Assembly (NCBI RefSeq): GCF_053078305.1
Contig: NZ_CP166879.1
Reading direction: 5' to 3' (one strand)
Length of the DNA stretch: 64,000 nt
Made by a program: the position numbers and the translations under genes. Below, one piece after another: positions 12,965 through 64,000 of this stretch (the first letter of the stretch is position 1; each line of letters begins with the position of its first letter). The notes beneath the pieces were generated by a model. It worked only from the letters and a program-made list of their open reading frames with translations, was not told the DNA's origin and did no database searches.

Positions 12965-13263
12965 AATGGCTCACTCAAGCTTGCTCACGATTGATTCCAG
13001 TAACAAACCGTATTGTGTAATTATTTCTATAGCAGATCGCTATATAGGCTTGTATACATCGAATAATTTGAAAATCAAAGAGATAGGTAGATTTTCACTC
13101 GAAAGTAGTATTACGTGTAAGTGAGGAGTAATTATTGTTCGGTATCAAAGGGAGACAAAAAAAGCGCCCGCAGGAGGTTTAACGCTACTTACTCCCCTTG
13201 ATGATTTGCTTATTTTTCAATGAGTAAATCAAAACAAGGGGAGCAAATAAGCACAAGTTACAA

Positions 13264-14256
13264 CTAATCGATGGACAGTTTATGGACACTTTCAGCCAGC
13301 GGATTAAAGCTGATTGCATCCTGTAAAAAGTCCGGCGAAAAATGCGCATACGTCATCGTTTGTTGAATCGTGGCATGGCCCAGGATTCGTTGTAGCGTAA
13401 CGATATTTCCGCCATTCATCATGAAATGTGTAGCGAATGTATGACGCATGACATGGGTGGCCTGCCCTTTCGGTAAGTCCGGCTTCACCTCCTGAAGGAT
13501 CTCCCGAAATCTGAGGTAATCAGCCTGGTACAACAATCCGGTTCTGCGGGTTTTAATTAACGCAAGTACCGCATCAGAAACGGGAACGGCGCGAGATTTT
13601 CCGTTCTTGGTGTTAAAGAACATCACGCGGTTACCTACAATATGTTCCCCACGTAAACCAGCTGCTTCACCCCACCTTGCCCCCGTGGAAAGACACAGAA
13701 TGGCAACACGCCGCGCATCTCCATCGAGTCGTTCAAGCAGTCGTTCAATCTCCTCATCTGAAAGAAAGGCCATCTCTGTGTTCCTGACTTTCAGCTTACG
13801 TATTCCCCGAACCGGGTTTTCGTTATGGAACACCTCACCCTCAATCAGCGAGCTGAACATTGCAGACAAGGCACACAAATCGCGGTTAATGCTGGAAGGC
13901 ATTAACCCGGCCTGTAATTTGTCGGACCGGTACCCGAGCATAAATTTTCGCGTCATCTGACTGGCACGAGGATCACCCATCTCACGGTTTATCTTTTCCA
14001 GTCTGACCCTGTAGGTATCCCCGTAATCCTGGTTACGACCATCAAGCAACCACCAGGCCTCTATCAGTTCGGATAACCGACGCTGATCTGCTGGCTTAGC
14101 CTGCCATGGCTTATCATGAAAATTCTGCAAAACATACCTTTCAAACTCCTGCGCCTTTGACTTCAGGGTAAAAATCTTACGAATCCGCTTTCCTTCCGTC
14201 CCTTGTGGCCTTACATCAACCTTATAACGTCCGTCTTTGAGTTGCTTAATCGACAT
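13264..14256 (-). CDS. int: Phage integrase, tyrosine recombinase (P2 Int-like)
   Basis: N-terminus MSIKQLKDGRYKVDVRPQGTEGKRIRK closely resembles P2 Int; C-terminal catalytic region HVMRHTFATHFMMNGGNIVTLQRILGH...TMTYAH; track ORF begins at an upstream TTG. Confidence 0.9.
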   Translation of the reverse strand: MSIKQLKDGRYKVDVRPQGTEGKRIRKIFTLKSKAQEFERYVLQNFHDKPWQAKPADQRRLSELIEAWWLLDGRNQDYGDTYRVRLEKINREMGDPRASQMTRKFMLGYRSDKLQAGLMPSSINRDLCALSAMFSSLIEGEVFHNENPVRGIRKLKVRNTEMAFLSDEEIERLLERLDGDARRVAILCLSTGARWGEAAGLRGEHIVGNRVMFFNTKNGKSRAVPVSDAVLALIKTRRTGLLYQADYLRFREILQEVKPDLPKGQATHVMRHTFATHFMMNGGNIVTLQRILGHATIQQTMTYAHFSPDFLQDAISFNPLAESVHKLSID

Positions 14257-17595: not shown

Positions 17596-18150
17596 ATGAG
17601 ACTTACACCAATGGGAATACCGGGCAAAGCCCCGGCACATGTGAAGGCGTGGACACAGCAGGAAGATCGGTTACTCATCTCGCTTTATCAGGAACACAAC
17701 ACACATCAGATGGCTGAACGAATTCAGCGAACCCGTAAAGCAGTTATGCACCGGATTCGTTTTTTACGTAATCGTGGGCTGATTGGCCGCAAGAGAAAAG
17801 CACCACTGAGTACAGAAGCCATAGCCTTTCTTATTAAAAACCGTCATGTAAAAACCGCACAGGAAATGGCTCTGGAAGTGGGATGTAGTGAGTGCACAGT
17901 GAGGTACACACTGCGTAAACGGGGTTACAACCTGAAAAAATGCGGTGAGAACCACCATTGCGCCAGATACAGCGATCATCTGGTTGAGCTGGTCACGGAG
18001 CTACGCGACATACACAACATGACGTTCTGCATGATCGCTGAACACATCAACAGCACGATACAGATGCACATTAACGACGATGCGGCGTTTCATCTCTACC
18101 ACCGCCGCACAGCGGCTGACGCCGCGCTCTGTGAACTGTTACCGGGCTGA
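17596..18150 (+). CDS. Putative DNA-binding protein with two HTH-like segments (occupies P2 gpB position; function unknown)
   Basis: 184 aa; segments HQMAERIQRTRKAVMHRIRFLRNRG and TAQEMALEVGCSECTVRYTLRKRG look helix-turn-helix-like; RBS acggaggttatcgcg. Confidence 0.4.
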   Translation: MRLTPMGIPGKAPAHVKAWTQQEDRLLISLYQEHNTHQMAERIQRTRKAVMHRIRFLRNRGLIGRKRKAPLSTEAIAFLIKNRHVKTAQEMALEVGCSECTVRYTLRKRGYNLKKCGENHHCARYSDHLVELVTELRDIHNMTFCMIAEHINSTIQMHINDDAAFHLYHRRTAADAALCELLPG

Positions 18151-18266
18151 GTGATCATCATGCACACACAAAAAAACCGCTTGCCATGCCGCAATCAGTC
18201 AGGTTACATTCCCACTGCACCTCATAAAACGGGTGCCGGGATTACCACCCCGCCGACTACACAAGC

Positions 18267-18290
18267 GCACAACCGCGCCAGCGGTTTTTT
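18267..18290 (+). terminator. Rho-independent terminator inside early region
   Basis: Hairpin accgcgccagcggt followed by TTTTTTT. Confidence 0.55.
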
Positions 18291-18470
18291 TGTGCGTACT
18301 GTATCGCCACGTCTTTTTCGCGTCAGAATTATGGCGGGGCGTACGGGGCCGACTTCGGTCGGGCCGGGGTCTTGTGTAGCCGGTTGTGGTAACCCTGTAC
18401 GTCTCGCCACCCTGAGATTACCGCCTCGGGTTGGTGAGTTTTCACAACTTACTACACAAGGGGCCACACC

Positions 18471-18766: not shown

Positions 18767-19189
18767 ATGAAGAACGTTAAGGGACTTTCAGATATTCAGG
18801 ATTTTTTTAACTGGATGTGGGCAGTGGATCCCCGGCTGGCTTCCCGCCTGAACGACTGGCACGACTATTACCGCCGCGCCTGTAAACAGGCCGCCAGACG
18901 CGTCACCACATACGGGGATTTCTCCTTCACCGTTGACGGCAGTTACCGCGTGGACGTGAAAGGCGATGGTGATGGTTTTGGTTTTGGTTTATTTCACATC
19001 AACGGAACCGACAGCACCGCCATCAGCTGGTCGTCGTCAGAGATGACGCTTGTTCTGGAAATGACAAACCACAGCGTGGCCGTGAAAGGTATATACACCG
19101 CAGAAGACTTTATCGGTGAATACCAGCGCCTTCTCGTGCTGTACCGGGCAGCGTTTCAGGCGGCAACTGCCGGGGAGTGCGACGCATGA
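18767..19189 (+). CDS. Hypothetical protein preceding replication gene
   Basis: 140-aa ORF; stop overlaps start of the replication gene. Confidence 0.4.
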   Translation: MKNVKGLSDIQDFFNWMWAVDPRLASRLNDWHDYYRRACKQAARRVTTYGDFSFTVDGSYRVDVKGDGDGFGFGLFHINGTDSTAISWSSSEMTLVLEMTNHSVAVKGIYTAEDFIGEYQRLLVLYRAAFQAATAGECDA

Positions 19190-21705
19190 GCGACCATAAC
19201 GCACAACTGGCGTACCCGTGGAACGCCCCGCTGCCGGTTATCGATCCTGAAACGTTCGGCAGAGCGCAACCAACCGCATTACGCCAGGCCATTCAGAGCT
19301 ACATCAACGAAGACATTCGCACTGACGCCAGACTGGATGAAGAAACCGTCGCCTTCCTGACAACCACAGACGAAGGGAAGCGAATTAATTCGCATCTTCA
19401 CCACGACGAAGAGCGTCGGATCAGACTGGAAAAACTGACGCGACACAAACGCGAAAATCCACCCACGCTGGTATCTGAAGCCATGGCAGAGCTGCGCGCC
19501 CTGCCGCCGTTTCTTGCCGGTCCGCTCATCCGTGACCTGGCCCGCCTGAGCCGCAAACAGGAGAGCGCACGCCGGGAAGGGCTTAAGAATAACAGCGCAT
19601 ATGCGGCGGATAACTTCGTTCGTCACGGCCTGCGTGCCCGCCTGAAACGTATCGCCCGTGTGAATGAACGCTTTGCCACCCCGGCCTTTAAGGCCACCGC
19701 CGCCCGCGAACGGCTGGATGAACTGCTTATGCTGCCGCAGCTGAGCCGTGACGAAATCCAGCGCCTTGCCACCCTGACCGCCACCGCGTTTTCCGCCGCA
19801 CTGGAGCGCGCATGTGATGAGGTCATCGAAAAGACCGGCAGGGGTGACGATGACCTGTTCACCTGGTTACTGACCTACCAGCCACTGGCACGCATGGCGT
19901 TAAAACTGGGTATCACACCACCCTGCTGGCCGTCGCTGGAAATCAGACCCGACCGCCGCACCGCCCCCGACCCGGAACAGGTGCCGGGTGCGGTCATGCG
20001 CCTTTCCTGTGCGACATGGTGGAACAGTCAGTTAAGACACCTCCGGGACATCTGGCGTGAAGAGCTGTTACGCGCCGCAGGTCTGGTGTCACGTAAGACA
20101 TCGGTATATATCAGCCATGAAGCGTTACTGGACTGGCGCGAAAAACGCCAGCGCACCCGCGATTTTCTGAAGGCCTGGGACATCGAGAACGAAGAGGGAG
20201 AACGGTTCAGCCTTGAGGATATCTACTGGGCAGGTCTCTCTAATCCGCGTAACCGCCGTAACGAGATGATGGCCTGCGTCCGGGGAATGGAGCAGGTCGC
20301 CGAAGCACGCGGCGACCTGGCGTTTTTCGTCACCGTCACAGCCCCTTCCCGTTTTCACAGCGTGAACGATGACGGCAGCCTGAACCCGAAATACTGCGGA
20401 GCAACGGTACGTGATGCCAGTGATTATCTGGTTTACCGCTTTTTCGCCGCCGTCCGCAGGGCCATCAACAAGGCCGGGCTGGGCTGGTACGGCGTGCGCA
20501 CAGTGGAGCCCCACCACGACGGTACACCGCACTGGCACATGCTGGTATTCACCAGCCCGGAAAACGAAGCCCGTATCACTGAAATCATGCGCAACGCCGC
20601 CATCAGGGAGGACCGCGCAGAGCTGGGTGATGATATCTCCCCGCGTTTTAAATGCGAAAAAATCGACCCGGCAAAAGGCACACCGGCGAGCTATATCGCG
20701 ACCTATATCGGTAAGAACCTGGACGCCAGCGCCTTCATGGGGAATGACCCGAAAACCGGCAAACCTTACGTCGATAAGGAATCAGGCAAAACCATGGCCG
20801 AAACCGTGGAGAACGCCATCGGCTGGGCGGCCCTTCACCGCATCCGCCAGTTCCAGTTCTTCGGTATCCCTCCCCGCCAGGTATGGCGCGAACTCCGCCG
20901 CCTTGCCGGGCAGATGGCCCGTAACCCGGCTGCCCCGCAGCGTCTGGACCATGACGACATTGACGCCATACTGGCCGCCGCCGACGTGGGATGTTTTGCC
21001 ACCTATATCACCCGCCAGGGTGGTGTGCTCATTCCCCGCAACACGTACCTGGTCCGCACCGCATACGAAACTGCCGAAGAGGCCAACGACTACGGCGAAT
21101 TCCCGCAACGCATTTACGGCGTCCGCGCCCCGTCACTCGGGGAGCGCTACACCATATGCACCCACCCGGACACCTGGAAACTGGTCAGACGTAAGCCGGA
21201 AAACGAAGACCGCACGGACGAGGGTTTTGACGTTGAGTGCGGCTTTGCCGCACCTTGGACTCGTGGCAATAACTGTCCCCCTGACCAGAATCTGACCATA
21301 AACGACCCGCCAGAAAGGCAGCCGGACGGACGCAGGGAGCAGCGACTTACCCTGCCGGAAGGTGATTTGGGTGAATGGTTAAGGTCACTGACCCCCACAG
21401 AGCGAAAACAACTCACCAGGCAGCTGAAAAACCCGCCACCTGACACGGAAACCGTGAAAAACGGCGGCATCAGTGCGCCCGCTGGCGGCGTTCGCGTGAG
21501 TGTCGCACTGACCGCTGAGCCACACATCACCGCACAAATCACCCGTGAGCTTGATGCGCTGGGCGTGCAGCTGCATGAAAGCGCCGTCGTTTCCGTCCGG
21601 CACGGTGCCCGCGTGCGCCTGGCTGACGGGCGCACCGCGTACTGGAATGACAGCACCCGCCGCATTGATATCACCCCCGCACCGAATACGGAGGCGCCAC
21701 AATGA
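19177..21705 (+). CDS. Replication initiation endonuclease (P2 gpA-like, HUH rolling-circle Rep)
   Basis: 842 aa; HUH-type motif EPHHDGTPHWHMLVF; located where P2 A lies relative to int-C-cox. Confidence 0.8.
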   Translation: MRRMSDHNAQLAYPWNAPLPVIDPETFGRAQPTALRQAIQSYINEDIRTDARLDEETVAFLTTTDEGKRINSHLHHDEERRIRLEKLTRHKRENPPTLVSEAMAELRALPPFLAGPLIRDLARLSRKQESARREGLKNNSAYAADNFVRHGLRARLKRIARVNERFATPAFKATAARERLDELLMLPQLSRDEIQRLATLTATAFSAALERACDEVIEKTGRGDDDLFTWLLTYQPLARMALKLGITPPCWPSLEIRPDRRTAPDPEQVPGAVMRLSCATWWNSQLRHLRDIWREELLRAAGLVSRKTSVYISHEALLDWREKRQRTRDFLKAWDIENEEGERFSLEDIYWAGLSNPRNRRNEMMACVRGMEQVAEARGDLAFFVTVTAPSRFHSVNDDGSLNPKYCGATVRDASDYLVYRFFAAVRRAINKAGLGWYGVRTVEPHHDGTPHWHMLVFTSPENEARITEIMRNAAIREDRAELGDDISPRFKCEKIDPAKGTPASYIATYIGKNLDASAFMGNDPKTGKPYVDKESGKTMAETVENAIGWAALHRIRQFQFFGIPPRQVWRELRRLAGQMARNPAAPQRLDHDDIDAILAAADVGCFATYITRQGGVLIPRNTYLVRTAYETAEEANDYGEFPQRIYGVRAPSLGERYTICTHPDTWKLVRRKPENEDRTDEGFDVECGFAAPWTRGNNCPPDQNLTINDPPERQPDGRREQRLTLPEGDLGEWLRSLTPTERKQLTRQLKNPPPDTETVKNGGISAPAGGVRVSVALTAEPHITAQITRELDALGVQLHESAVVSVRHGARVRLADGRTAYWNDSTRRIDITPAPNTEAPQ

Positions 21706-22115: not shown

Positions 22116-22325
22116 ATGAACATAACCAGAAACAGCCAACTAAAGGAGCGCACCATGAACAGCACCAGGAGGATCAGCGACAGAGAGCTTACGAAAATGA
22201 TTGAGTCGGCACAGCAGCTGCTTTCACGACAAAACCCGGTCGTGGAAGAAACATGGTGGGAGAATTTACTGGCAGCACTGACCGAACTCCGGGAACGCCG
22301 GAACAACGAAGGAGCCGCCAAATGA
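22116..22325 (+). CDS. Hypothetical small protein
   Basis: 69-aa ORF; start may be internal (MNSTRRISDREL). Confidence 0.3.
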   Translation: MNITRNSQLKERTMNSTRRISDRELTKMIESAQQLLSRQNPVVEETWWENLLAALTELRERRNNEGAAK

Positions 22326-22648
22326 AGACCCCAGGAATGACCGGAAAGGAAATCATTTTACGCTACCTGGAAACGCACACACGTTTCAGCGCCCCAGAAC
22401 TGGTAGAAAAACTGGGCGTGAAAAGAACCGTCATTAATCAGGCCGCCGGGAAAATGGTACGGGAAGGCCTGCTGGTTGTGGATGGATACACGGACAAGAT
22501 AACGCATTACCGGAAGCCAACGGAAAAGGAACGACAGGAACTGGCGCAACGGGCTGAACGGCAGCAGGAAAAATCAGTCATCGAAGCCTGCAAGCGCAGC
22601 GAAATCATGAAGCGAATTCTGTTTATCTACGGCGCTGCATTCCGTTAA
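22322..22648 (+). CDS. Putative winged-helix DNA-binding protein
   Basis: 108 aa from MKTPGMTGKEIILRYLETHTRFSAPELVEKLGVKRTVINQAAGKMVREGLLVV; ATGA overlap with preceding ORF. Confidence 0.4.
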   Translation: MKTPGMTGKEIILRYLETHTRFSAPELVEKLGVKRTVINQAAGKMVREGLLVVDGYTDKITHYRKPTEKERQELAQRAERQQEKSVIEACKRSEIMKRILFIYGAAFR

Positions 22649-22656
22649 AGGAGCTG

Positions 22657-22680
22657 GTGAGTCGGGGCAAAAATTCTTTT
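22657..22680. terminator. Bidirectional terminator between convergent genes
   Basis: Hairpin ggggcaaaaattctttttgcccc. Confidence 0.5.
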
Positions 22681-22713
22681 TGCCCCGGCGAAGCAGCAGA
22701 CAAGCGAAGCGCG

Positions 22714-22977
22714 TCAGGAACGCCGCGACAGTAGTTCAAGCGCATACCGGCGATCTTCCGGGCGCATGGCATCAACAAGAAACTTCACCATATTGCGACC
22801 GGAGCGGGCGCCGGGGCTGAGGGTATGGGAAAAGGTCATCGTACAGACGAAGGTGTGCCCGCATTCGACATCACTGCATGCACAGTACAGATCCGCAAGT
22901 TCAGGGGTTTTCCAGTCTGTCTTCCGGATGACAGCAGGTGCGCCACAGTCAGGACACCGGGCTTTAAAAATCCGCAT
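22714..22977 (-). CDS. Ogr/Delta-family zinc-finger late-gene transcription activator
   Basis: From MRIFKARCPDCGAPAV...YCACSDVECGHTF: CPxC...CxxxxxCxxTF pattern of P2 Ogr; GGGAGG RBS 7 nt upstream of ATG. Confidence 0.7.
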   Translation of the reverse strand: MRIFKARCPDCGAPAVIRKTDWKTPELADLYCACSDVECGHTFVCTMTFSHTLSPGARSGRNMVKFLVDAMRPEDRRYALELLSRRS

Positions 22978-23014
22978 CTTACCTCCCGATAACACGTATC
23001 CCGGGGAAGACATT

Positions 23015-24088
23015 TTACCCGACCGGCACCACTTTTTCTTCCGCCACATGCCCGGCTTCCACATCAAAACGAAGATAAAGGTGTTCCGGTATATCGGGAT
23101 CGCTGTTCACGGCGTTCATGATTTTACGCTGAAGCGGTATCACCTCATCCTTGCGGTACGTTTCACGCGTCGTTTCCGGGTTAGGGATGGTGGCCCCGTT
23201 CGTGGGGATGATCCCCGCAAGACCGGCAGGAAAGCGGTGTGCCGTAAACACATCCTGGGCGCTGATCCCCTTGATGTTTGAAAATTCATCCTTGGCGCTC
23301 ACCTCACCAATCGGAATAATTTTCACCCCATCCGGCGAACCTTTGGGGATGTTGATGTACAGATTGCGGAAATTTCCCAGCCCCTTAGACTCCGCCACCT
23401 TCTCGCGGATCTCATCCTCCATCTCCGTGGTGATCCCAGGGTCGTTCGTATACAGCAAAAAGCCCATATGCGCCCCGTTGTTGTAGTAACGGCGACGAAA
23501 AAGGCTGGCCTCGCTGTTCAGCAGCGCCGAGTGAATGCCACCGATATAATCCGGCAGCCCGTAAATTTGCTGACGCGGATCATACATCCGCAGAAAGATA
23601 ATATCTTCCGGCGTATAGACCAGCGCGGGACCTTCCTGAAGCACCACGAACTCACCGGTTTTGCGGCGCCGGAGATACAGCGACGGAAGCGGCTCAAGTG
23701 CCACGACGTCGCCGAATACGTTACGCACCTTGAGCAGGGCGAGATCGCCGAACAACAGGTAGTCAAATACCGCCTGTTCCATCTGGTCCGTTGTGAGGCC
23801 ACCACCGGTATAGCCCCCCGCCACCATGTTACGGCGGGCATACAGCACCCCACCGTGCTGGGCGTTAAGGTTCGGGAGCTGCGCCAGTGCCAGGCGGTTA
23901 ATCGGCAGCTGCCAGTGGTTGTGTTCGTTGTCATACCAGATGTTATGGTAGTCCGTGCCGGTGGTCAGCACCGGTTCCGGCTGACCAAACGTGATTGTGC
24001 TGCCACGTGCGGGCGTGAATGCTTTTTTCGTCACGCGTGACGTTTTGTTTCTGCGTTTCTTGCTCATGCGGCTTTCCCGAAGGCCCAT
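23015..24088 (-). CDS. Portal (capsid vertex) protein, P2 gpQ-like
   Basis: 357 aa; size and position upstream of terminase ATPase on same strand as in P2 Q-P; family assignment by recall. Confidence 0.6.
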   Translation of the reverse strand: MGLRESRMSKKRRNKTSRVTKKAFTPARGSTITFGQPEPVLTTGTDYHNIWYDNEHNHWQLPINRLALAQLPNLNAQHGGVLYARRNMVAGGYTGGGLTTDQMEQAVFDYLLFGDLALLKVRNVFGDVVALEPLPSLYLRRRKTGEFVVLQEGPALVYTPEDIIFLRMYDPRQQIYGLPDYIGGIHSALLNSEASLFRRRYYNNGAHMGFLLYTNDPGITTEMEDEIREKVAESKGLGNFRNLYINIPKGSPDGVKIIPIGEVSAKDEFSNIKGISAQDVFTAHRFPAGLAGIIPTNGATIPNPETTRETYRKDEVIPLQRKIMNAVNSDPDIPEHLYLRFDVEAGHVAEEKVVPVG

Positions 24089-25890
24089 GTGGACGGGCGT
24101 TCATAGTCATAATCTACAGGCTCATTAATCACGGCGTGCGAAATGGCAAAAAACACATCCGCATGCCCCGTAACATCCGACCGTTCCGCCACGAACGTCA
24201 GCGCGTTACCGCTTTTTGTGGTGGTGCGGCGTATGGACATGAACGACGCGGGGATCTCCGTGCGTTCACGGCTGGCCTCATCAATGGCGTCTTTCGCCCA
24301 CTCGATACGCTTATGGGCCACCACGTCTATCATTTTCATCACCAGGCGGTTTTTGCTCTCCACGCTGTAAAGAATGGCGTTAGCCTCACGTGGCGCAAAG
24401 CGACTGACGATATCAAACACCCCTTTCCCGATACCGGTGATATCTATGCCGATATAGGTAATGTTAAAGCGCTGCATCAGTTCGCGGATCTGATCGGCCT
24501 GCCAGGTGAAGTTAAATCCCTGCCACTGCCAGACGGCGAGTACACGGAACCGCTCGCCCTCATGGACAGGCGGAGCCACAATCACAAACGTGGAATTATC
24601 CCCGGACCTTGACGGGTCAAAGCCCGCCCATACCTCACGATTGCCGAACGGACGTGCCGCCGTGGGATCGTAGTCACCCCACGTCTCCATCTCCACCTCG
24701 CACCTGACCAGTTCGGAGAACTTAAATACCGCATCCTTGCTGTCAACAAACTCGCAGCCGTACAGCATCGCATAGGTGGTCGGGTTGTAGCGGTTCCTGA
24801 TACGTTCAATATCAACCCGTGCAGACAGGCCACCCGCCACCGCCTCTTCCAGCCGGATAATGTAGCGCCAGATCCCGTCAGGGCATTCACAGCCCACACG
24901 CATCGCGCTTTCTTTCGGAAACTCAACCGCACGACGCGCCGGGTCATCCCCGCGCCAGTCGTCACCATTCCAGACCAGATAAGCCTGGTGGGTTTTGGCG
25001 CTGGGTGTGGAAAAATACGTCGTGCGGTATTTGTCGTGGGTCGCCATTGCCGAGGCCACTTCATGCAGTCGCGTGAATTTTGGGATCCAGAACACCTCAT
25101 CGCCGTAAAGGTGGCCGTTAAATCCCTGGGCGGTGCTGACATTGGTGGACAGGAAGCGCAGCATTGCACCATTGCTCAGACGGATATGCTTACCCGTGAG
25201 CGTGATCCCAAACTGCAGGGCGAAGTTAATAATATATTCACGAAAGATTTCCGCCTGTACCCGTGACGCAGAAAAGAAAATCTGGTTATCACCGGTCACC
25301 ACCGCATCTTCGAACGCTTCCCATGCAAAATACCAGGTCATGCCGATCTGGCGGCTCTTGAGGATGAAACGGCGCTCACGGTGCCGGTTCTCGCGGCAGT
25401 GCAGCTGGTAGGCATAAAGATTTTTACGCGCCCATTCATCCAGCATTTCAGCAGTCAGTCCGGAAACGTCGTTTTTCCGGTAGCGCCGCTTTTTCCCTTC
25501 TCCCCCGCCGCAGGTCCCCGCAGCCGCGCCGTCCTCATACCCTGCCGGACGCAGGGCGGCAATTTCCGCCATCCTTTCAGCGTGTTTGTTTTTCTGGGCG
25601 ATGATCTTCACGTGCTGCGCGATAAGTTCACGCAGTTCGGCAAGTTCACACTCTGTCTTGCCCTCCCGTCCGGTCAGCACATCAATACGCCGGGCGATCA
25701 CGTCCTCAACGGATTCAGCGGGCAGCAGGGCGGCCCACTGCCCCACATCACACCAGTGGTAAACCGTGCGCGGCGGAATACCGAGTTCCGCCGCAATATC
25801 GCGGGGGTGCCACCGCTTCAGGTAAAGCGATCGCGCCGCCTCTTTGATTTCGTCAGAATATTTAGCCATGCGCCCATTATGGCGGCGCAT
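24064..25890 (-). CDS. Terminase large (ATPase) subunit, P2 gpP-like
   Basis: 608-aa ORF; N-terminal HTH-like segment (RDIAAELGIPPRTVYHWC); divergent from scaffold/capsid genes as in P2; true start may be MAKYSDEIK. Confidence 0.65.
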   Translation of the reverse strand: MRRHNGRMAKYSDEIKEAARSLYLKRWHPRDIAAELGIPPRTVYHWCDVGQWAALLPAESVEDVIARRIDVLTGREGKTECELAELRELIAQHVKIIAQKNKHAERMAEIAALRPAGYEDGAAAGTCGGGEGKKRRYRKNDVSGLTAEMLDEWARKNLYAYQLHCRENRHRERRFILKSRQIGMTWYFAWEAFEDAVVTGDNQIFFSASRVQAEIFREYIINFALQFGITLTGKHIRLSNGAMLRFLSTNVSTAQGFNGHLYGDEVFWIPKFTRLHEVASAMATHDKYRTTYFSTPSAKTHQAYLVWNGDDWRGDDPARRAVEFPKESAMRVGCECPDGIWRYIIRLEEAVAGGLSARVDIERIRNRYNPTTYAMLYGCEFVDSKDAVFKFSELVRCEVEMETWGDYDPTAARPFGNREVWAGFDPSRSGDNSTFVIVAPPVHEGERFRVLAVWQWQGFNFTWQADQIRELMQRFNITYIGIDITGIGKGVFDIVSRFAPREANAILYSVESKNRLVMKMIDVVAHKRIEWAKDAIDEASRERTEIPASFMSIRRTTTKSGNALTFVAERSDVTGHADVFFAISHAVINEPVDYDYERPSTWAFGKAA

Positions 25891-26035
25891 CCGGCCCGCA
25901 TTCAGGCAGAAAATTTCGGCTGTGTTCGGCTATCCCGCGTTATCCGAAGACAGCCGAATTCAGCCAGTAGCCCCCCGCTGTAAAAATCCCGACACTCACC
26001 GGAGTTCTTCAGATTTTCACGTAAAAGAGGCCACG

Positions 26036-27085
26036 ATGCCGCAGCCAACGTTGATGACCGACTGGATATGTATCGCCACATCAGGACCGACCGTTGACGG
26101 CCGCGAAATTGATCCGCAGTGGCTGACTGATGCCGCTGAAACCTATTCCCGCAACACCTACACGGCGATGCTGTGGCCCTGGCATGAGGAAGAAATCGGA
26201 CACCGCCAGTACACCAGTAATCTGGGTGAAGTGGACTCACTGAAAGCGGAAACCGGCGAGGACGGTAAAACCCGCCTCTACGCACGGCTGGTCCCTAACC
26301 AGTACCTGATTGAAGCCAACAGACTGGGGCAGAAGCTGTTCACATCCGCCGAGATAGTGGAGAACTTCGCCCGGAGCGGACGCGACTATCTCCTGGGCGT
26401 GGCGGTGACGGATATCCCCGCCAGTCTGGGGACGGAAAAAATCCGCTTCACCCTGAACAACGAGGAATACACGGCACAGCGGGCGAACTGCCAGACGTTC
26501 ACGCTGGGCAGCCTGTCACCGGACACCTCCCCGCCCCCCCGTAAACCTGAATCATTCCTGAAACGCCTGTTCAGCGCAGGACAGACCGACAACACCGACA
26601 CCAGTAAGCCTGATACAGGCGAGGACGCAAAAATGGACGAAATTAAAGCACTGCTTGAAAAGCTGATCACCCTGGTGGAAGGCGGCAGCGCCGCTGCCGC
26701 TGGCGAGGGCACAGCAGACACACCGGAAGAAGCAAAAGCCGAAGTCGCGGAAATCGCCGCCGAAATCGCCGATGCCGCCGCAGAGGTGGCAGAACTGGCA
26801 GAAGAAGTGGAAGCCGCCCCGGAAGATGAGGTTAAGGCTGAAGCCTTCAGCGCCGCGAAAGCGAAGCTGGAAGACGCGATTAAAGCGTTCAGTGCCATCA
26901 CACCGGAAAAAGGCGAACGTTACCGCCGCTTTGCCGCCCGTCGCCGGGACGACACCGACAAAGAAGAAATCAAAGCTATTGCCGAAAAACTTAACGACCT
27001 GACCACGAAGCTGTCAGCAACCGGCATCACGCCACGACCGGCTGGCACACCGGCAGAAAGCGAAAAACCGTTTGACTTTGTTTAA
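26036..27085 (+). CDS. Capsid scaffolding protein, P2 gpO-like
   Basis: From MPQPTLMTDW with aaagagg RBS; YLLGVAVTDIPASLGTE matches P2 gpO YLVGLAVTDDPASLGTE by recall; Ala/Glu-rich C-terminus; track ORF 25844..27085 is an upstream extension. Confidence 0.7.
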   Translation: MPQPTLMTDWICIATSGPTVDGREIDPQWLTDAAETYSRNTYTAMLWPWHEEEIGHRQYTSNLGEVDSLKAETGEDGKTRLYARLVPNQYLIEANRLGQKLFTSAEIVENFARSGRDYLLGVAVTDIPASLGTEKIRFTLNNEEYTAQRANCQTFTLGSLSPDTSPPPRKPESFLKRLFSAGQTDNTDTSKPDTGEDAKMDEIKALLEKLITLVEGGSAAAAGEGTADTPEEAKAEVAEIAAEIADAAAEVAELAEEVEAAPEDEVKAEAFSAAKAKLEDAIKAFSAITPEKGERYRRFAARRRDDTDKEEIKAIAEKLNDLTTKLSATGITPRPAGTPAESEKPFDFV

Positions 27086-45100: not shown

Positions 45101-45105
45101 GGTAA

Positions 45106-45463
45106 ATTACGCGCGGGTGCCTTTCGGCTGACGGCTGGAAGGAATACCTGAAGGCCGGATGTGAAAAGGCCCCGAGTCAACTAACGTTAACCCGAGGCCC
45201 TGACACTTCCTACCTGACAAGTGGAAGGTTAGCGCCTCCCTGTAAAAGGAGTCAAGCGCTATGCCGCAAAAAACGATCATAGTGAGCATTTTATGCATAA
45301 CTATTTTGATGATTGTCTGGATGATACACACGTCACCGTGTGAGTTCAGGCTTAACATCATGTGGTCACAATTTGCGGCGTTCTTGCAGTGTAAACAGTA
45401 AGAAACCGCAGCGGGGGTGAAAGCCCCCGCTATCCGGTTGCCGGGTTCGGTCGATATGGCACC
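45106..45463 (+). repeat. Copy 1 of ~360-bp duplicated module carrying a small hydrophobic-peptide gene (type I toxin-like locus)
   Basis: Near-identical to 45826..46186 (about 90% by eye); starts attacgcgcgggtgcctttcgg, ends at GC hairpin gcgggggtgaaagcccccgc. Confidence 0.7.
45261..45401 (+). CDS. 46-aa hydrophobic peptide, Hok/Gef-like candidate type I toxin (copy 1)
   Basis: MPQKTIIVSILCITILMIVWMIHTSPCEFRLNIMWSQFAAFLQCKQ; AGGAG RBS 8 nt upstream; single TM then Cys-containing tail, as in Hok family; highly structured leader. Confidence 0.45.
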   Translation: MPQKTIIVSILCITILMIVWMIHTSPCEFRLNIMWSQFAAFLQCKQ

Positions 45464-45720: not shown

Positions 45721-45825
45721 CGCCCCGACACAGGACAGAGTAAGCCTGTGCGAAAGAATATCACCAGTGCGATAGCGTTGTCTGCTTCAACGCCAGGCAT
45801 TGCGCACACAAAGGGAAATCAGTAC

Positions 45826-46186
45826 ATTACACGCGGGTGCCTTTCGGCTGATGGCTGGAAGGATTACCTGAAGGCCGGATGTGGAAAGGCCCCGAGTCAA
45901 CTTTAATGTTAACCCGAGGCCCTGACCATCTACCCTAAGCAAGTGGAAGGTTAGCGCCTCCCTGTAAAAGGAGTCAAGCGCTATGCCGCAAAAAACGATC
46001 ATCGTGAGCATTTTATGCTTAACCATGTTGTTGACCGTCTGGATGATACACCGTTCTCCGTGTGAGTTCAGGCTTAACATCATGTGGTCAGAATTTGCGG
46101 CGTTCTTGCAGTGTAAACCGTAAGAAACCGCAGCGGGGGTGAAAGCCCCCGCTATCCGGTTGCCAAAGGTTCGGTCGAAAGTCGCA
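45826..46186 (+). repeat. Copy 2 of ~360-bp duplicated module (type I toxin-like locus)
   Basis: Direct repeat of 45106..45463 with scattered substitutions. Confidence 0.7.
45983..46123 (+). CDS. 46-aa hydrophobic peptide, Hok/Gef-like candidate type I toxin (copy 2)
   Basis: MPQKTIIVSILCLTMLLTVWMIHRSPCEFRLNIMWSEFAAFLQCKP; same RBS and frame as copy 1; differences are mostly conservative. Confidence 0.45.
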   Translation: MPQKTIIVSILCLTMLLTVWMIHRSPCEFRLNIMWSEFAAFLQCKP

Positions 46187-61224: not shown

Positions 61225-61312
61225 GGTGAGGTGTCCGAGTGGCTGAAGGAGCACGCCTGGAAAGTGTGTATACGGCAACGTATCGGGGGTTCGAATCCCC
61301 CCCTCACCGCCA
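61225..61312 (+). tRNA. serW: tRNA-Ser (anticodon GGA), long-variable-arm class II tRNA
   Basis: GGTGAGGTGTCCGAGTGGCTGAAGGAGCACGCCTGGAAAGTGTG...GGTTCGAATCCCCCCCTCACCGCCA; acceptor stem complementarity, T-loop GGTTCGAATCC, CCA end. Confidence 0.93.
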
Positions 61313-61351: not shown

Positions 61352-61655
61352 TTCGCATTTTATCTGTCTGTACGGCAGTGAACATGGTGGGCGGGTGGAG
61401 TATGTTACCTGTGAATTTCTAAGCTGCCTGTACGGCAGTGAACACAAATACTACACGTTTAGCCCGTTGTTAATAAAGCAAAACCATCTCATTTTCCTGC
61501 TACCACCCTTTTTTTATCCTTACCTTACCGCAGCACTAATTATCAACAACTTACCATCATCATCAAAAAAAGGGTCTGAACCTCCTCCCCCATAAATAAA
61601 AAGTCCGTAACCTCTTTCGAGATTACGGACTTCACCAACCTACTTAACAATCAGA

Positions 61656-63932
61656 TTAATGCGCTGCTTCCGCCTTGTGCTTTTGTGCACTCTGGAATCC
61701 GTAAGTCAGCTCATTTTTCTCTTTATCCAGCGCGACGGTGACCTGACCGCCGTCCACCAGCGAACCAAACAGCAGTTCGTTGGCAAGCGGTTTTTTCAGG
61801 TTGTCCTGGATGACACGCGCCATCGGACGTGCGCCCATTGCCCGGTCGTAACCTTTCTCGGCCAGCCAGTTACGCGCTTCCTGGCTCACTTCCAGCGAAA
61901 CACCTTTCTGATCCAGCTGAACCTGCAACTCGACGATGAATTTATCCACCACCTGATGGATCACGTCAGTTGACAGATGATCGAACCAGATAATGTTGTC
62001 GAGACGGTTACGGAATTCCGGTGTAAAGATCTTCTTGATCTCTTCCATCGCATCGGTGCTGTTATCCTGGTGGATAAGACCAATGGATTTACGCTCAGTT
62101 TCCCGTACCCCGGCGTTGGTGGTCATCACCAGCACCACGTTACGGAAGTCCGCTTTGCGTCCGTTGTTATCGGTCAGCGTACCGTTGTCCATCACCTGCA
62201 ACAGAATATTGAACACGTCCGGGTGCGCTTTCTCGATTTCGTCCAGCAGCAGCACCGCATGTGGATGCTTGATGACCGCATCAGTCAGCAAACCGCCCTG
62301 ATCAAAACCAACGTATCCCGGAGGCGCACCAATAAGACGGCTGACGGTATGGCGTTCCATATACTCGGACATATCAAAGCGCAGAAGCTCAATGCCCAAA
62401 GCTTTCGAAAGCTGTACCGTCACCTCTGTTTTCCCGACCCCGGTAGGGCCGGCAAACAGGAACGAACCAACCGGTTTATGTTCGTGACCTAAACCTGCAC
62501 GCGCCATCTTAATGGCTTCAGTCAGCGCCTCAATAGCTTTATCCTGACCGAAGACCAGCATTTTCAGGCGATCGCCGAGGTTTTTCAGGGTATCGCGGTC
62601 ACTCTGAGAAACACTCTTCTCTGGAATGCGTGCAATACGGGCCACCACGGACTCAATATCCGCCACATTTACGGTTTTCTTGCGTTTGCTTACCGGCATC
62701 AGGCGTGCGCGAGCGCCCGCTTCGTCGATAACATCAATCGCTTTATCCGGCAGATGACGATCGTTAATGTATTTCACCGCCAGCTCTACCGCCGCACGCA
62801 CCGCTTTTGCGGTATAACGCACGTCGTGGTGCGCTTCATACTTCGGTTTCAGGCCATTGATGATTTGAACAGTTTCTTCGATCGACGGTTCAGTAATATC
62901 AATTTTCTGGAAGCGACGCGCCAGAGCACGGTCTTTCTCGAAAATGTTGCTGAACTCCTGATAGGTTGTCGAACCAATTACGCGAATTTTACCGCTGGAG
63001 AGCAACGGTTTGATTAGGTTAGCCGCATCGACCTGACCACCAGACGCTGCACCCGCACCGATAATGGTGTGGATCTCATCAATAAACAGGATGCTGTTAG
63101 TGTCCTGCTCCAGCTGCTTGAGCAACGCTTTAAAACGTTTTTCAAAGTCGCCGCGATATTTTGTGCCCGCTAACAGAGAACCGATATCGAGAGAGTAAAT
63201 CGTACAGTCAGCCATCACTTCCGGCACATCGCCCTGAACAATTCGCCAGGCAAGACCTTCTGCAATCGCGGTTTTACCGACACCAGATTCCCCCACCAGC
63301 AGCGGGTTGTTTTTACGGCGACGGCAGAGAACCTGAATAGCACGCTCCAGCTCCTTCTCACGACCAATCAGTGGGTCGATTCCGCCCACGCGCGCAAGCT
63401 GATTCAGGTTCGTCGTGAAATTCTCCATACGTTCCTCCCCACCAGCTTGTTCTTCGCTGTTTGGCTGGCTGCCAGGATCAGAAGACTGTGTCGGCTCGTC
63501 TTTACGCGTGCCATGAGAGATAAAGTTCACCACATCGAGACGGCTGACTTCATGTTTACGCAACAGATATGCCGCCTGCGACTCCTGTTCGCTAAAGATA
63601 GCGACCAGAACGTTTGCACCGGTAACCTCATTGCGACCGGAGGACTGGACATGGAAGACCGCACGTTGCAGTACACGCTGAAAACTCAGCGTCGGCTGTG
63701 TGTCGCGCTCCTCTTCACTGGCAGGCAGAACGGGTGTGGTTTGTTCAATAAAGGCTTCCAGTTCCTGACGGAGCGCAACCAAATCCACAGAACACGCTTC
63801 CAGCGCCTCCCGGGCAGATGGGTTACTGAGCAGCGCCAGTAACAAGTGCTCGACGGTCATAAACTCATGACGGTGCTCGCGCGCTCTGGCGAAAGCCATA
63901 TTTAAACTGAGTTCCAGTTCTTGATTGAGCAT
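61656..63932 (-). CDS. clpA: ATP-dependent Clp protease ATP-binding subunit ClpA
   Basis: 758 aa from [35 protein letters not shown]; two AAA+ modules (GESGVGKTA and GPTGVGKTE Walker A); track ORF starts 5 codons upstream. Confidence 0.95.
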
Positions 63933-64000
63933 AGGCACCTCCCCCAATTTTTATGCCTGCATTCAGGCTTTTTCTAGCGTACACAGCAATGGATGCTCAT

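Follow-up and report, generated by a model that had tools for sequence, protein, structure and literature searches.

The open reading frame (ORF) at positions 22714–22977 (minus strand) of the window, by which we mean the whole 64-kb stretch of DNA analysed here, very probably encodes a late-gene transcriptional activator of the Cys4 Ogr/B/Delta type that stands in its native position within a K139/ESSI-2/SI7-type prophage. An earlier note on this DNA had taken the gene for one relocated within a P2-type prophage, a view that our results do not bear out. The position of ogr beside the portal gene is the normal and already published layout of the K139/ESSI-2/SI7 branch and not a rearrangement; the "relocation" is an artefact that arises when P2 is taken as the reference. 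For this prophage, P2 is the wrong map, and a portal-adjacent ogr is a marker of the K139/ESSI-2/SI7-type lineage and no anomaly. The gene had already been identified by annotation and its order was already known, and the significance beyond a correct annotation is little. The modest gain is a testable candidate operator, together with a candidate ogr promoter, for a late-activator subfamily that seems never to have been studied experimentally; in the literature searched, we found no experiment on the 87-aa protein or on any member of its subfamily.

The coordinates of the 87-aa ORF (MRIFKARCPDCGAPAVIRKTDWKTPELADLYCACSDVECGHTFVCTMTFSHTLSPGARSGRNMVKFLVDAMRPEDRRYALELLSRRS) include the stop codon and agree exactly with those of the earlier note. 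Its product matches Pfam PF04606 (Ogr_Delta) over the entire profile (positions 1–47 of 47) with 57.4 bits at a cut-off of 26.3 (E 1.3e-15), and PHROG 603 (transcriptional regulator) takes in this protein as well as P2 Ogr. Residues C8, C11, C34 and C39 are invariant when the protein is aligned with P2 Ogr, 186 B, P4 Delta, K139 Orf13 and the homologues from ESSI-2 and SW3, and the four cysteines are spaced C-x2-C-x22-C-x4-C, just as in P2 Ogr, 186 B and P4 Delta. These matches confirm the assignment to the Ogr/Delta zinc-finger family made in the earlier note, as well as its Cys4 pattern, in which only the second pair was misread (CxxxxxC, the true spacing being CxxxxC). Furthermore, E. coli 04-00955, whose locus is 99.3% identical, has the same 264-bp CDS, which carries the PGAP annotation WP_001217943.1, "ogr/Delta-like zinc finger family protein". 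Family membership is also seen from the phage side, as the prophage carries P2-family gpA, portal, terminase, scaffold, capsid and gpM genes and has its nearest relatives in the Peduoviridae.

Within this family, the protein stands apart from P2 Ogr, to which it is 25% identical. It reaches 19.2 bits with NCBIfam NF007241, the P2 Ogr equivalog model (cut-off 116 bits), compared to 177.6 bits for P2 Ogr itself, and hence belongs to a separate subfamily; judged by these profiles, it is a member of the Pfam Ogr/Delta family and not an orthologue-level match to P2 Ogr. P2 Ogr has 72 residues and the window protein 87, with a C-terminal extension of ~15–30 residues whose conservation is limited to its own subfamily. 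To this subfamily also belong K139 Orf13 and the homologues from ESSI-2, SI7/SW3, YenM324, phiO18P and Smhb1, each a "transcriptional regulator / zinc-finger protein" whose gene lies downstream of portal (44–60% identity to the window protein); in the K139/ESSI-2/SI7-type phages, the homologues have 83–89 residues, carry the same C-terminal extension and are encoded after the portal gene, convergent with rep. Delta of the satellite phage P4 shares the zinc-finger family and activates helper late promoters. It is, however, a tandem duplication of the module (166 aa) encoded between sid and psu, whereas the window protein is a single module encoded by a complete helper-type phage. A sequence search of the PDB retrieved no solved structure of any relative of the 87-aa protein, and zinc binding, dyad binding and dependence on the RNA polymerase alpha subunit would be expected of it by extrapolation from P2, 186 and P4.

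The prophage sits between dmsA and serS of the E. coli chromosome, and these flanking genes were used to set its boundaries because no att direct repeats of at least 18 bp were found at its ends. The portal gene (gpQ homologue; 23015–24067, minus strand; Pfam Phage_portal, coordinates from PGAP) lies directly upstream of ogr on the same strand, as the earlier note had stated, and its end at 23015 leaves a gap of 37 bp. It is preceded by the gene of the large terminase subunit (gpP homologue; 24064–25869, minus strand; Pfam Terminase_6N, Terminase_6C and Terminase_5, and PGAP), the first gene of a leftward terminase–portal–ogr late operon. This minus-strand block is divergent from a plus-strand block that begins with the capsid scaffold gene (gpO homologue; 26036–27085, plus strand; PGAP of the 04-00955 locus, order as in SW3 and K139) and continues through capsid, gpM, head completion, tail sheath and tube, holin and endolysin, tape measure, baseplate and fibres to ~44399. 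On its other side, it is convergent to the genes that precede it, in the order integrase, a repressor-like HTH gene, cox, small early genes, an isrK/C4 RNA pair, the replication endonuclease gene at the end of the early operon (gpA homologue; 19186–21705, plus strand; Pfam Phage_GPA, E 2e-106, and PGAP), two small ORFs and a MarR/Ren-like gene (22322–22648, plus strand; PGAP and PHROG), the latter gene and gpA being convergent with ogr.

In the window prophage as in K139, all late genes are contained in two divergent operons, so that a single control region (25870–26035) could serve all of them. Within this region, between terminase and scaffold, we identified an extended inverted repeat, TTCGGCTGTG-TTCGG-N14-CCGAA-GACAGCCGAA (25915–25958, core dyad 25925–25948), as a candidate site for the Ogr-like activator; written out, it reads TTCGGCTGTG-TTCGG-CTATCCCGCGTTAT-CCGAA-GACAGCCGAA. 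The exact TTCGG-N14-CCGAA motif occurs only once in the 64-kb window. The same dyad, with a spacer of 13 or 14 nucleotides, is found in the terminase/scaffold control region of K139/ESSI-2-type phages: K139 has one copy in its 33-kb genome, at the equivalent place, as have ESSI-2 and YenM324 at theirs. In a survey of 73 related loci having both flanking genes, 63 carry an exact TTCGG-N13/14-CCGAA in the intergenic region, and no copy was found outside the terminase/scaffold region in 710 kb. The exact dyad is absent from the intergenic region of the other ten, nine of which have variants with one or two mismatches in a scan with the N14 spacer, while the tenth (L090) has at least three. Shuffled control regions, by comparison, came within one mismatch of the dyad in 0.2% of trials. 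The centre of the dyad lies 66–67 bp ahead of the terminase ATG in the best-preserved loci and up to ~125 bp ahead in others; in SW3, the closest cultured phage, its left inner half-site is degenerate. Neither P2 and 186 nor the more distant phages phi3 and PY3 have a TTCGG/CCGAA dyad. The dyad thus goes with the protein subfamily and is, for this reason, the best candidate for the site bound by the activator.

The activator sites annotated in P2 and 186 are mostly of the form TGT-N12-CCA, and the earlier note had proposed to look for such an Ogr-dependent consensus at the late promoters. No TGT-N12-(A/C)CA dyad is present in the control region 25870–26035, where the sole match with one mismatch overlaps a –10-like TAAAAAT. 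We also tried the exact TGT-N12-ACA motif across the window and discarded it, with 10 matches against 15.6 expected and none in the late control region; being an idealised consensus, it is a weak test, given that the annotated P2 and 186 sites mostly end in CCA, and the rescan of the control region with one mismatch was likewise negative. From the distribution of the motifs, TTCGG-N13/14-CCGAA is the likely activator site of this lineage in place of the TGT-N12-CCA of P2. P2 also has four late promoters, whereas the window lineage appears to have one divergent pair. The literature searched yielded no description of a TTCGG-N13/14-CCGAA site, although the K139 genome paper (Kapfhammer 2002) may discuss the dyad.

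The same control region contains a –10-like hexamer, CATAAT (25876–25881, minus strand), only ~6–8 nt upstream of the terminase ATG, which has no Shine-Dalgarno sequence. The hexamer recurs in most of the related control regions inspected but not in every one, loci L074, L083 and L090 being among those without it at that spacing. The terminase mRNA may have little or no leader.

A second candidate element precedes ogr itself. A TAAAAT hexamer (23012–23017, minus strand) lies 40 nt upstream of the ogr ATG, where it overlaps the portal stop codon, and the hexamer is present 38–44 nt upstream of the ATG in ~50 of 54 distinct upstream sequences. Its frame with respect to ogr varies from lineage to lineage, a pattern that points to a signal at the DNA level. 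Its conservation suggests that TAAAAT serves as the –10 element of a weak or regulated promoter belonging to ogr. No consensus –35 element accompanies it, and a generic sigma-70 scan around ogr called no minus-strand promoter. The records of P2 ogr and 186 B each show a promoter of their own.

Taken together, these elements can be arranged into a putative scheme of late-gene control. The ogr product would first be made from its own weak promoter, with the TAAAAT inside the end of the portal gene as candidate –10 element. The Ogr-like protein would then bind TTCGG-N14-CCGAA and its outer half-sites, 10 bp away, between terminase and scaffold, and from this dyad both late operons would be switched on with the host RNA polymerase. 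As ogr is co-directional with portal, follows it after 37 bp and is separated from it by no terminator called in our scan of the gap, late transcription should read from terminase and portal into ogr, giving positive feedback. In this arrangement, ogr is the last gene of the leftward late operon, followed by a hairpin and probably by cos, with the early replication operon converging from the other side. We put forward, as a tentative proposal that falls somewhat short of an even chance, that the Ogr subfamily encoded next to portal binds its own operator, different from the TGT-N12-CCA site of P2, 186 and P4. This operator would be TTCGG-N13/14-CCGAA, flanked by outer half-sites at a distance of one helical turn, and its single copy between terminase and scaffold would drive the whole late regulon while read-through feeds back on ogr.

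The topology of this loop has a counterpart in P2 (Peduovirus) and 186 (Eganvirus), where ogr and B, which share Ogr_Delta, PHROG 603 and the cysteine spacing with the window protein, are likewise the last genes before a terminator shared with a late operon. A single terminator is annotated for the P2 "ogr transcript and F operon" and, in 186, for "pB and late promoter". The host operon differs, being the tail F/J operon next to attP in P2 and 186 and the terminase–portal operon in the window, yet the shared terminators indicate that the feedback topology is conserved. With the activator gene closing a late operon in both layouts, the same feedback is implied.

It could also be a different factor that binds the conserved dyad, and the zinc-finger protein could have diverged to another job, such as a cos or packaging accessory or a different regulator, with that other factor controlling late transcription. 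The low identity to P2 Ogr, the C-terminal extension confined to the subfamily, the failure of the P2-Ogr equivalog model, the vicinity of a putative cos and the lack of a P2-type TGT-N12-CCA site would all fit such a divergence. We nonetheless consider it improbable: the full-length Pfam match and the identical cysteine spacing favour the family function, PGAP annotates no second Ogr-family gene in the prophage and no other late activator candidate is apparent, and the protein subfamily and the dyad co-occur across relatives.

The start of the 87-aa protein is the ATG at 22977, as judged from conservation and the ribosome-binding signal. The window also contains longer in-frame ORFs that overlap the end of the portal gene, of 117 aa from a TTG at 23067 or 99 aa from an ATG at 23013, and N-terminally extended homologues are annotated in the deposited records of SW3, ESSI-2 and YenM324. 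That such a longer form is the real product is very unlikely, since the annotated extensions have no sequence in common between relatives (those of SW3, YenM324 and the window ORF are all unrelated), and conservation in the alignment begins at M-R-[IV]. Furthermore, a strong Shine-Dalgarno sequence, GGGAGG (22982–22987, minus strand; read from the sequence), stands 4 nt before the ATG at 22977, and the short start is the one used by K139, phiO18P and PGAP.

Downstream of ogr, between it and the convergent MarR/Ren-like gene, the sequence CGGGGCAAAAA-TTC-TTTTTGCCCCG (22663–22687) can fold into a hairpin. The 81-nt region that includes it (22640–22720) has a folding energy of –28 kcal/mol (z = –3.35), and in phage P88 a compensatory A/T swap keeps the stem. 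The hairpin has no canonical U-tract and was not called by the terminator scan; based on folding and the compensatory change, it is the probable terminator of the terminase–portal–ogr transcript. It is followed, 8 bp beyond the ogr stop codon, by GGCGAAGCAGCAGACAAGC (22687–22705), which equals the annotated P2 cosL 19-mer GGCGAGGCGGGGAAAGCAC at 10 of 19 positions (compared by eye). In P2 and 186, cos lies downstream of the portal gene, and this likeness hints, weakly, that 22687–22705 is a cos sequence. A megablast of the ogr region against phages gave as sole match a 74-bp block of P88-type phages. We rejected this match as homology of the ogr gene, because it consists of the post-operon block with the hairpin and the cos-like 19-mer beginning GGCGA (22646–22720), which shares 93% identity with the stretch directly behind portal in P88-type phages (Xuanwuvirus). 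The homology ends at the stop codon of the upstream gene, which is ogr in the window and portal in P88, and P88-type coliphages are otherwise unrelated to the window prophage. Hairpin and cos-like sequence may plausibly form a cos/terminator module, and the 74-bp block looks like a mobile one.

The position of ogr has to be seen against the relatives of this prophage. The closest cultured phages are SW3/SW5/SI7, ESSI-2, YenM324 and K139, and not P2. The portal protein is 76% identical to that of SW3 (SW3/SI7, Irrigatiovirus) and 58% to that of the ESSI-2-like phage ESSI2_ev129, compared to 33% for P2 Q; at the DNA level, the head region aligns only with SW3/SW5/SI7 (71% identity over 84% of the query). 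Moreover, the gene order of the whole prophage is collinear with Salmonella phage SW3 and Vibrio phage K139 and not with P2. By sequence identity and gene order, the prophage is assigned to the K139/ESSI-2/SI7-type branch of the Peduoviridae and not to P2-type Peduovirus.

In this branch, ogr after portal is the rule. The terminase–portal–ogr order with a convergent rep gene was found in all seven phages checked, which represent six named genera and one unclassified Pseudoalteromonas phage. Ordered by the identity of their Ogr protein to that of the window, these are SI7/SW3 (Irrigatiovirus, 60%), ESSI-2 (Seongnamvirus, 55%), YenM324 (Tresduoquattuorvirus, 54%), K139, Kappa and their group (Longwoodvirus, 48%), phiO18P (Bielevirus, 45%), Pseudomonas phi3 (Phitrevirus, 41%) and Pseudoalteromonas PY3 (unclassified, 31%). 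The gene stands directly after portal in all of them except K139, in which a further small ORF (orf14) intervenes between portal and orf13; otherwise, the homologue group differs only by sequence divergence. A scan of IMG/VR added 80 loci carrying an Ogr relative of 53–100% identity, all 80 of which have the order terminase, portal, ogr, with a divergent scaffold gene wherever the relevant flank is present. A gpA homologue converges downstream of ogr in 67 of them and was not detected in the other 13, several of which have the full downstream flank. The layout of portal followed by ogr has also been stated in print for K139 and for Smhb1 (PMC8537503). The same gene order is thus normal in a described phage group, as seen in the seven phages, the 80 loci and the published account.

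That a P2-type prophage had its ogr moved from the attP end to the portal side as a peculiarity of the window element is extremely unlikely: the gene does follow tail gene D beside attP in P2 and 186, and the head genes and gpA of the window prophage are of the P2 family, but the portal identities, the gene order throughout, the 80 loci and seven phages, the published layout of K139 and Smhb1 and the existence of Peduoviridae with ogr in yet other places all speak against it. The earlier note was right that the position differs from P2, where ogr, like B in 186, follows gene D beside attP, and the zinc finger is conserved on alignment, with four invariant cysteines; the prophage does differ from canonical P2, yet it is not rearranged. 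As to the other places, ogr of the Burkholderia phages KS5 and KL3 is found next to the repressor in the early region (PMC3091744), and that of phiRSY1 at ~35 kb (PMC5694545). The position of ogr is hence lineage-specific, and P2 is no universal reference. Burkholderia phage phiE094 (Tigrvirus), considered as a further example of a portal-adjacent ogr, was rejected, as it has no ogr next to portal.

Several features elsewhere in the window were observed in passing. The "MarR family" gene at 22322–22648 (plus strand) matches PHROG 142, "Ren-like exclusion protein" (E 4.5e-29), and may be a superinfection-exclusion moron in the slot of P2 tin and old. Between a Myb/HTH-like ORF (17596–18150) and gpA, where the early operon otherwise has no genes, Rfam detects isrK (18217–18291, plus strand; 63.6 bits) and C4 antisense RNA (18327–18414, plus strand; 79.6 bits), both above the gathering score, a pair corresponding to an RNA module of the P1/P7 c4 or Gifsy IsrK type for immunity/antirepressor control in a P2-like prophage. 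Near the dmsA-side junction, a full-length Rfam match to the enterobacterial sRNA STnc130 (13055–13189, plus strand; 122 bits) overlaps the 3' end of the integrase gene (13026–14018, minus strand). Two tandem copies, 94% identical and repeated at a period of ~720 bp (45102–45442 and 45822–46164), lie just past the right prophage end, where PGAP has two Hok/Gef family toxin loci in the matching genome. Further along, a tRNA-Ser(GGA) gene (61225–61312, plus strand) is followed by two type I-F-like CRISPR repeat remnants (61366–61386 and 61416–61443; CTGTACGGCAGTGAACA, Rfam CRISPR-DR4, 50 bits), which are adjoined by a 763-aa ORF (61656–63947, minus strand); the site is probably the orphan CRISPR locus known to lie between the E. 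coli genes clpA and infA.
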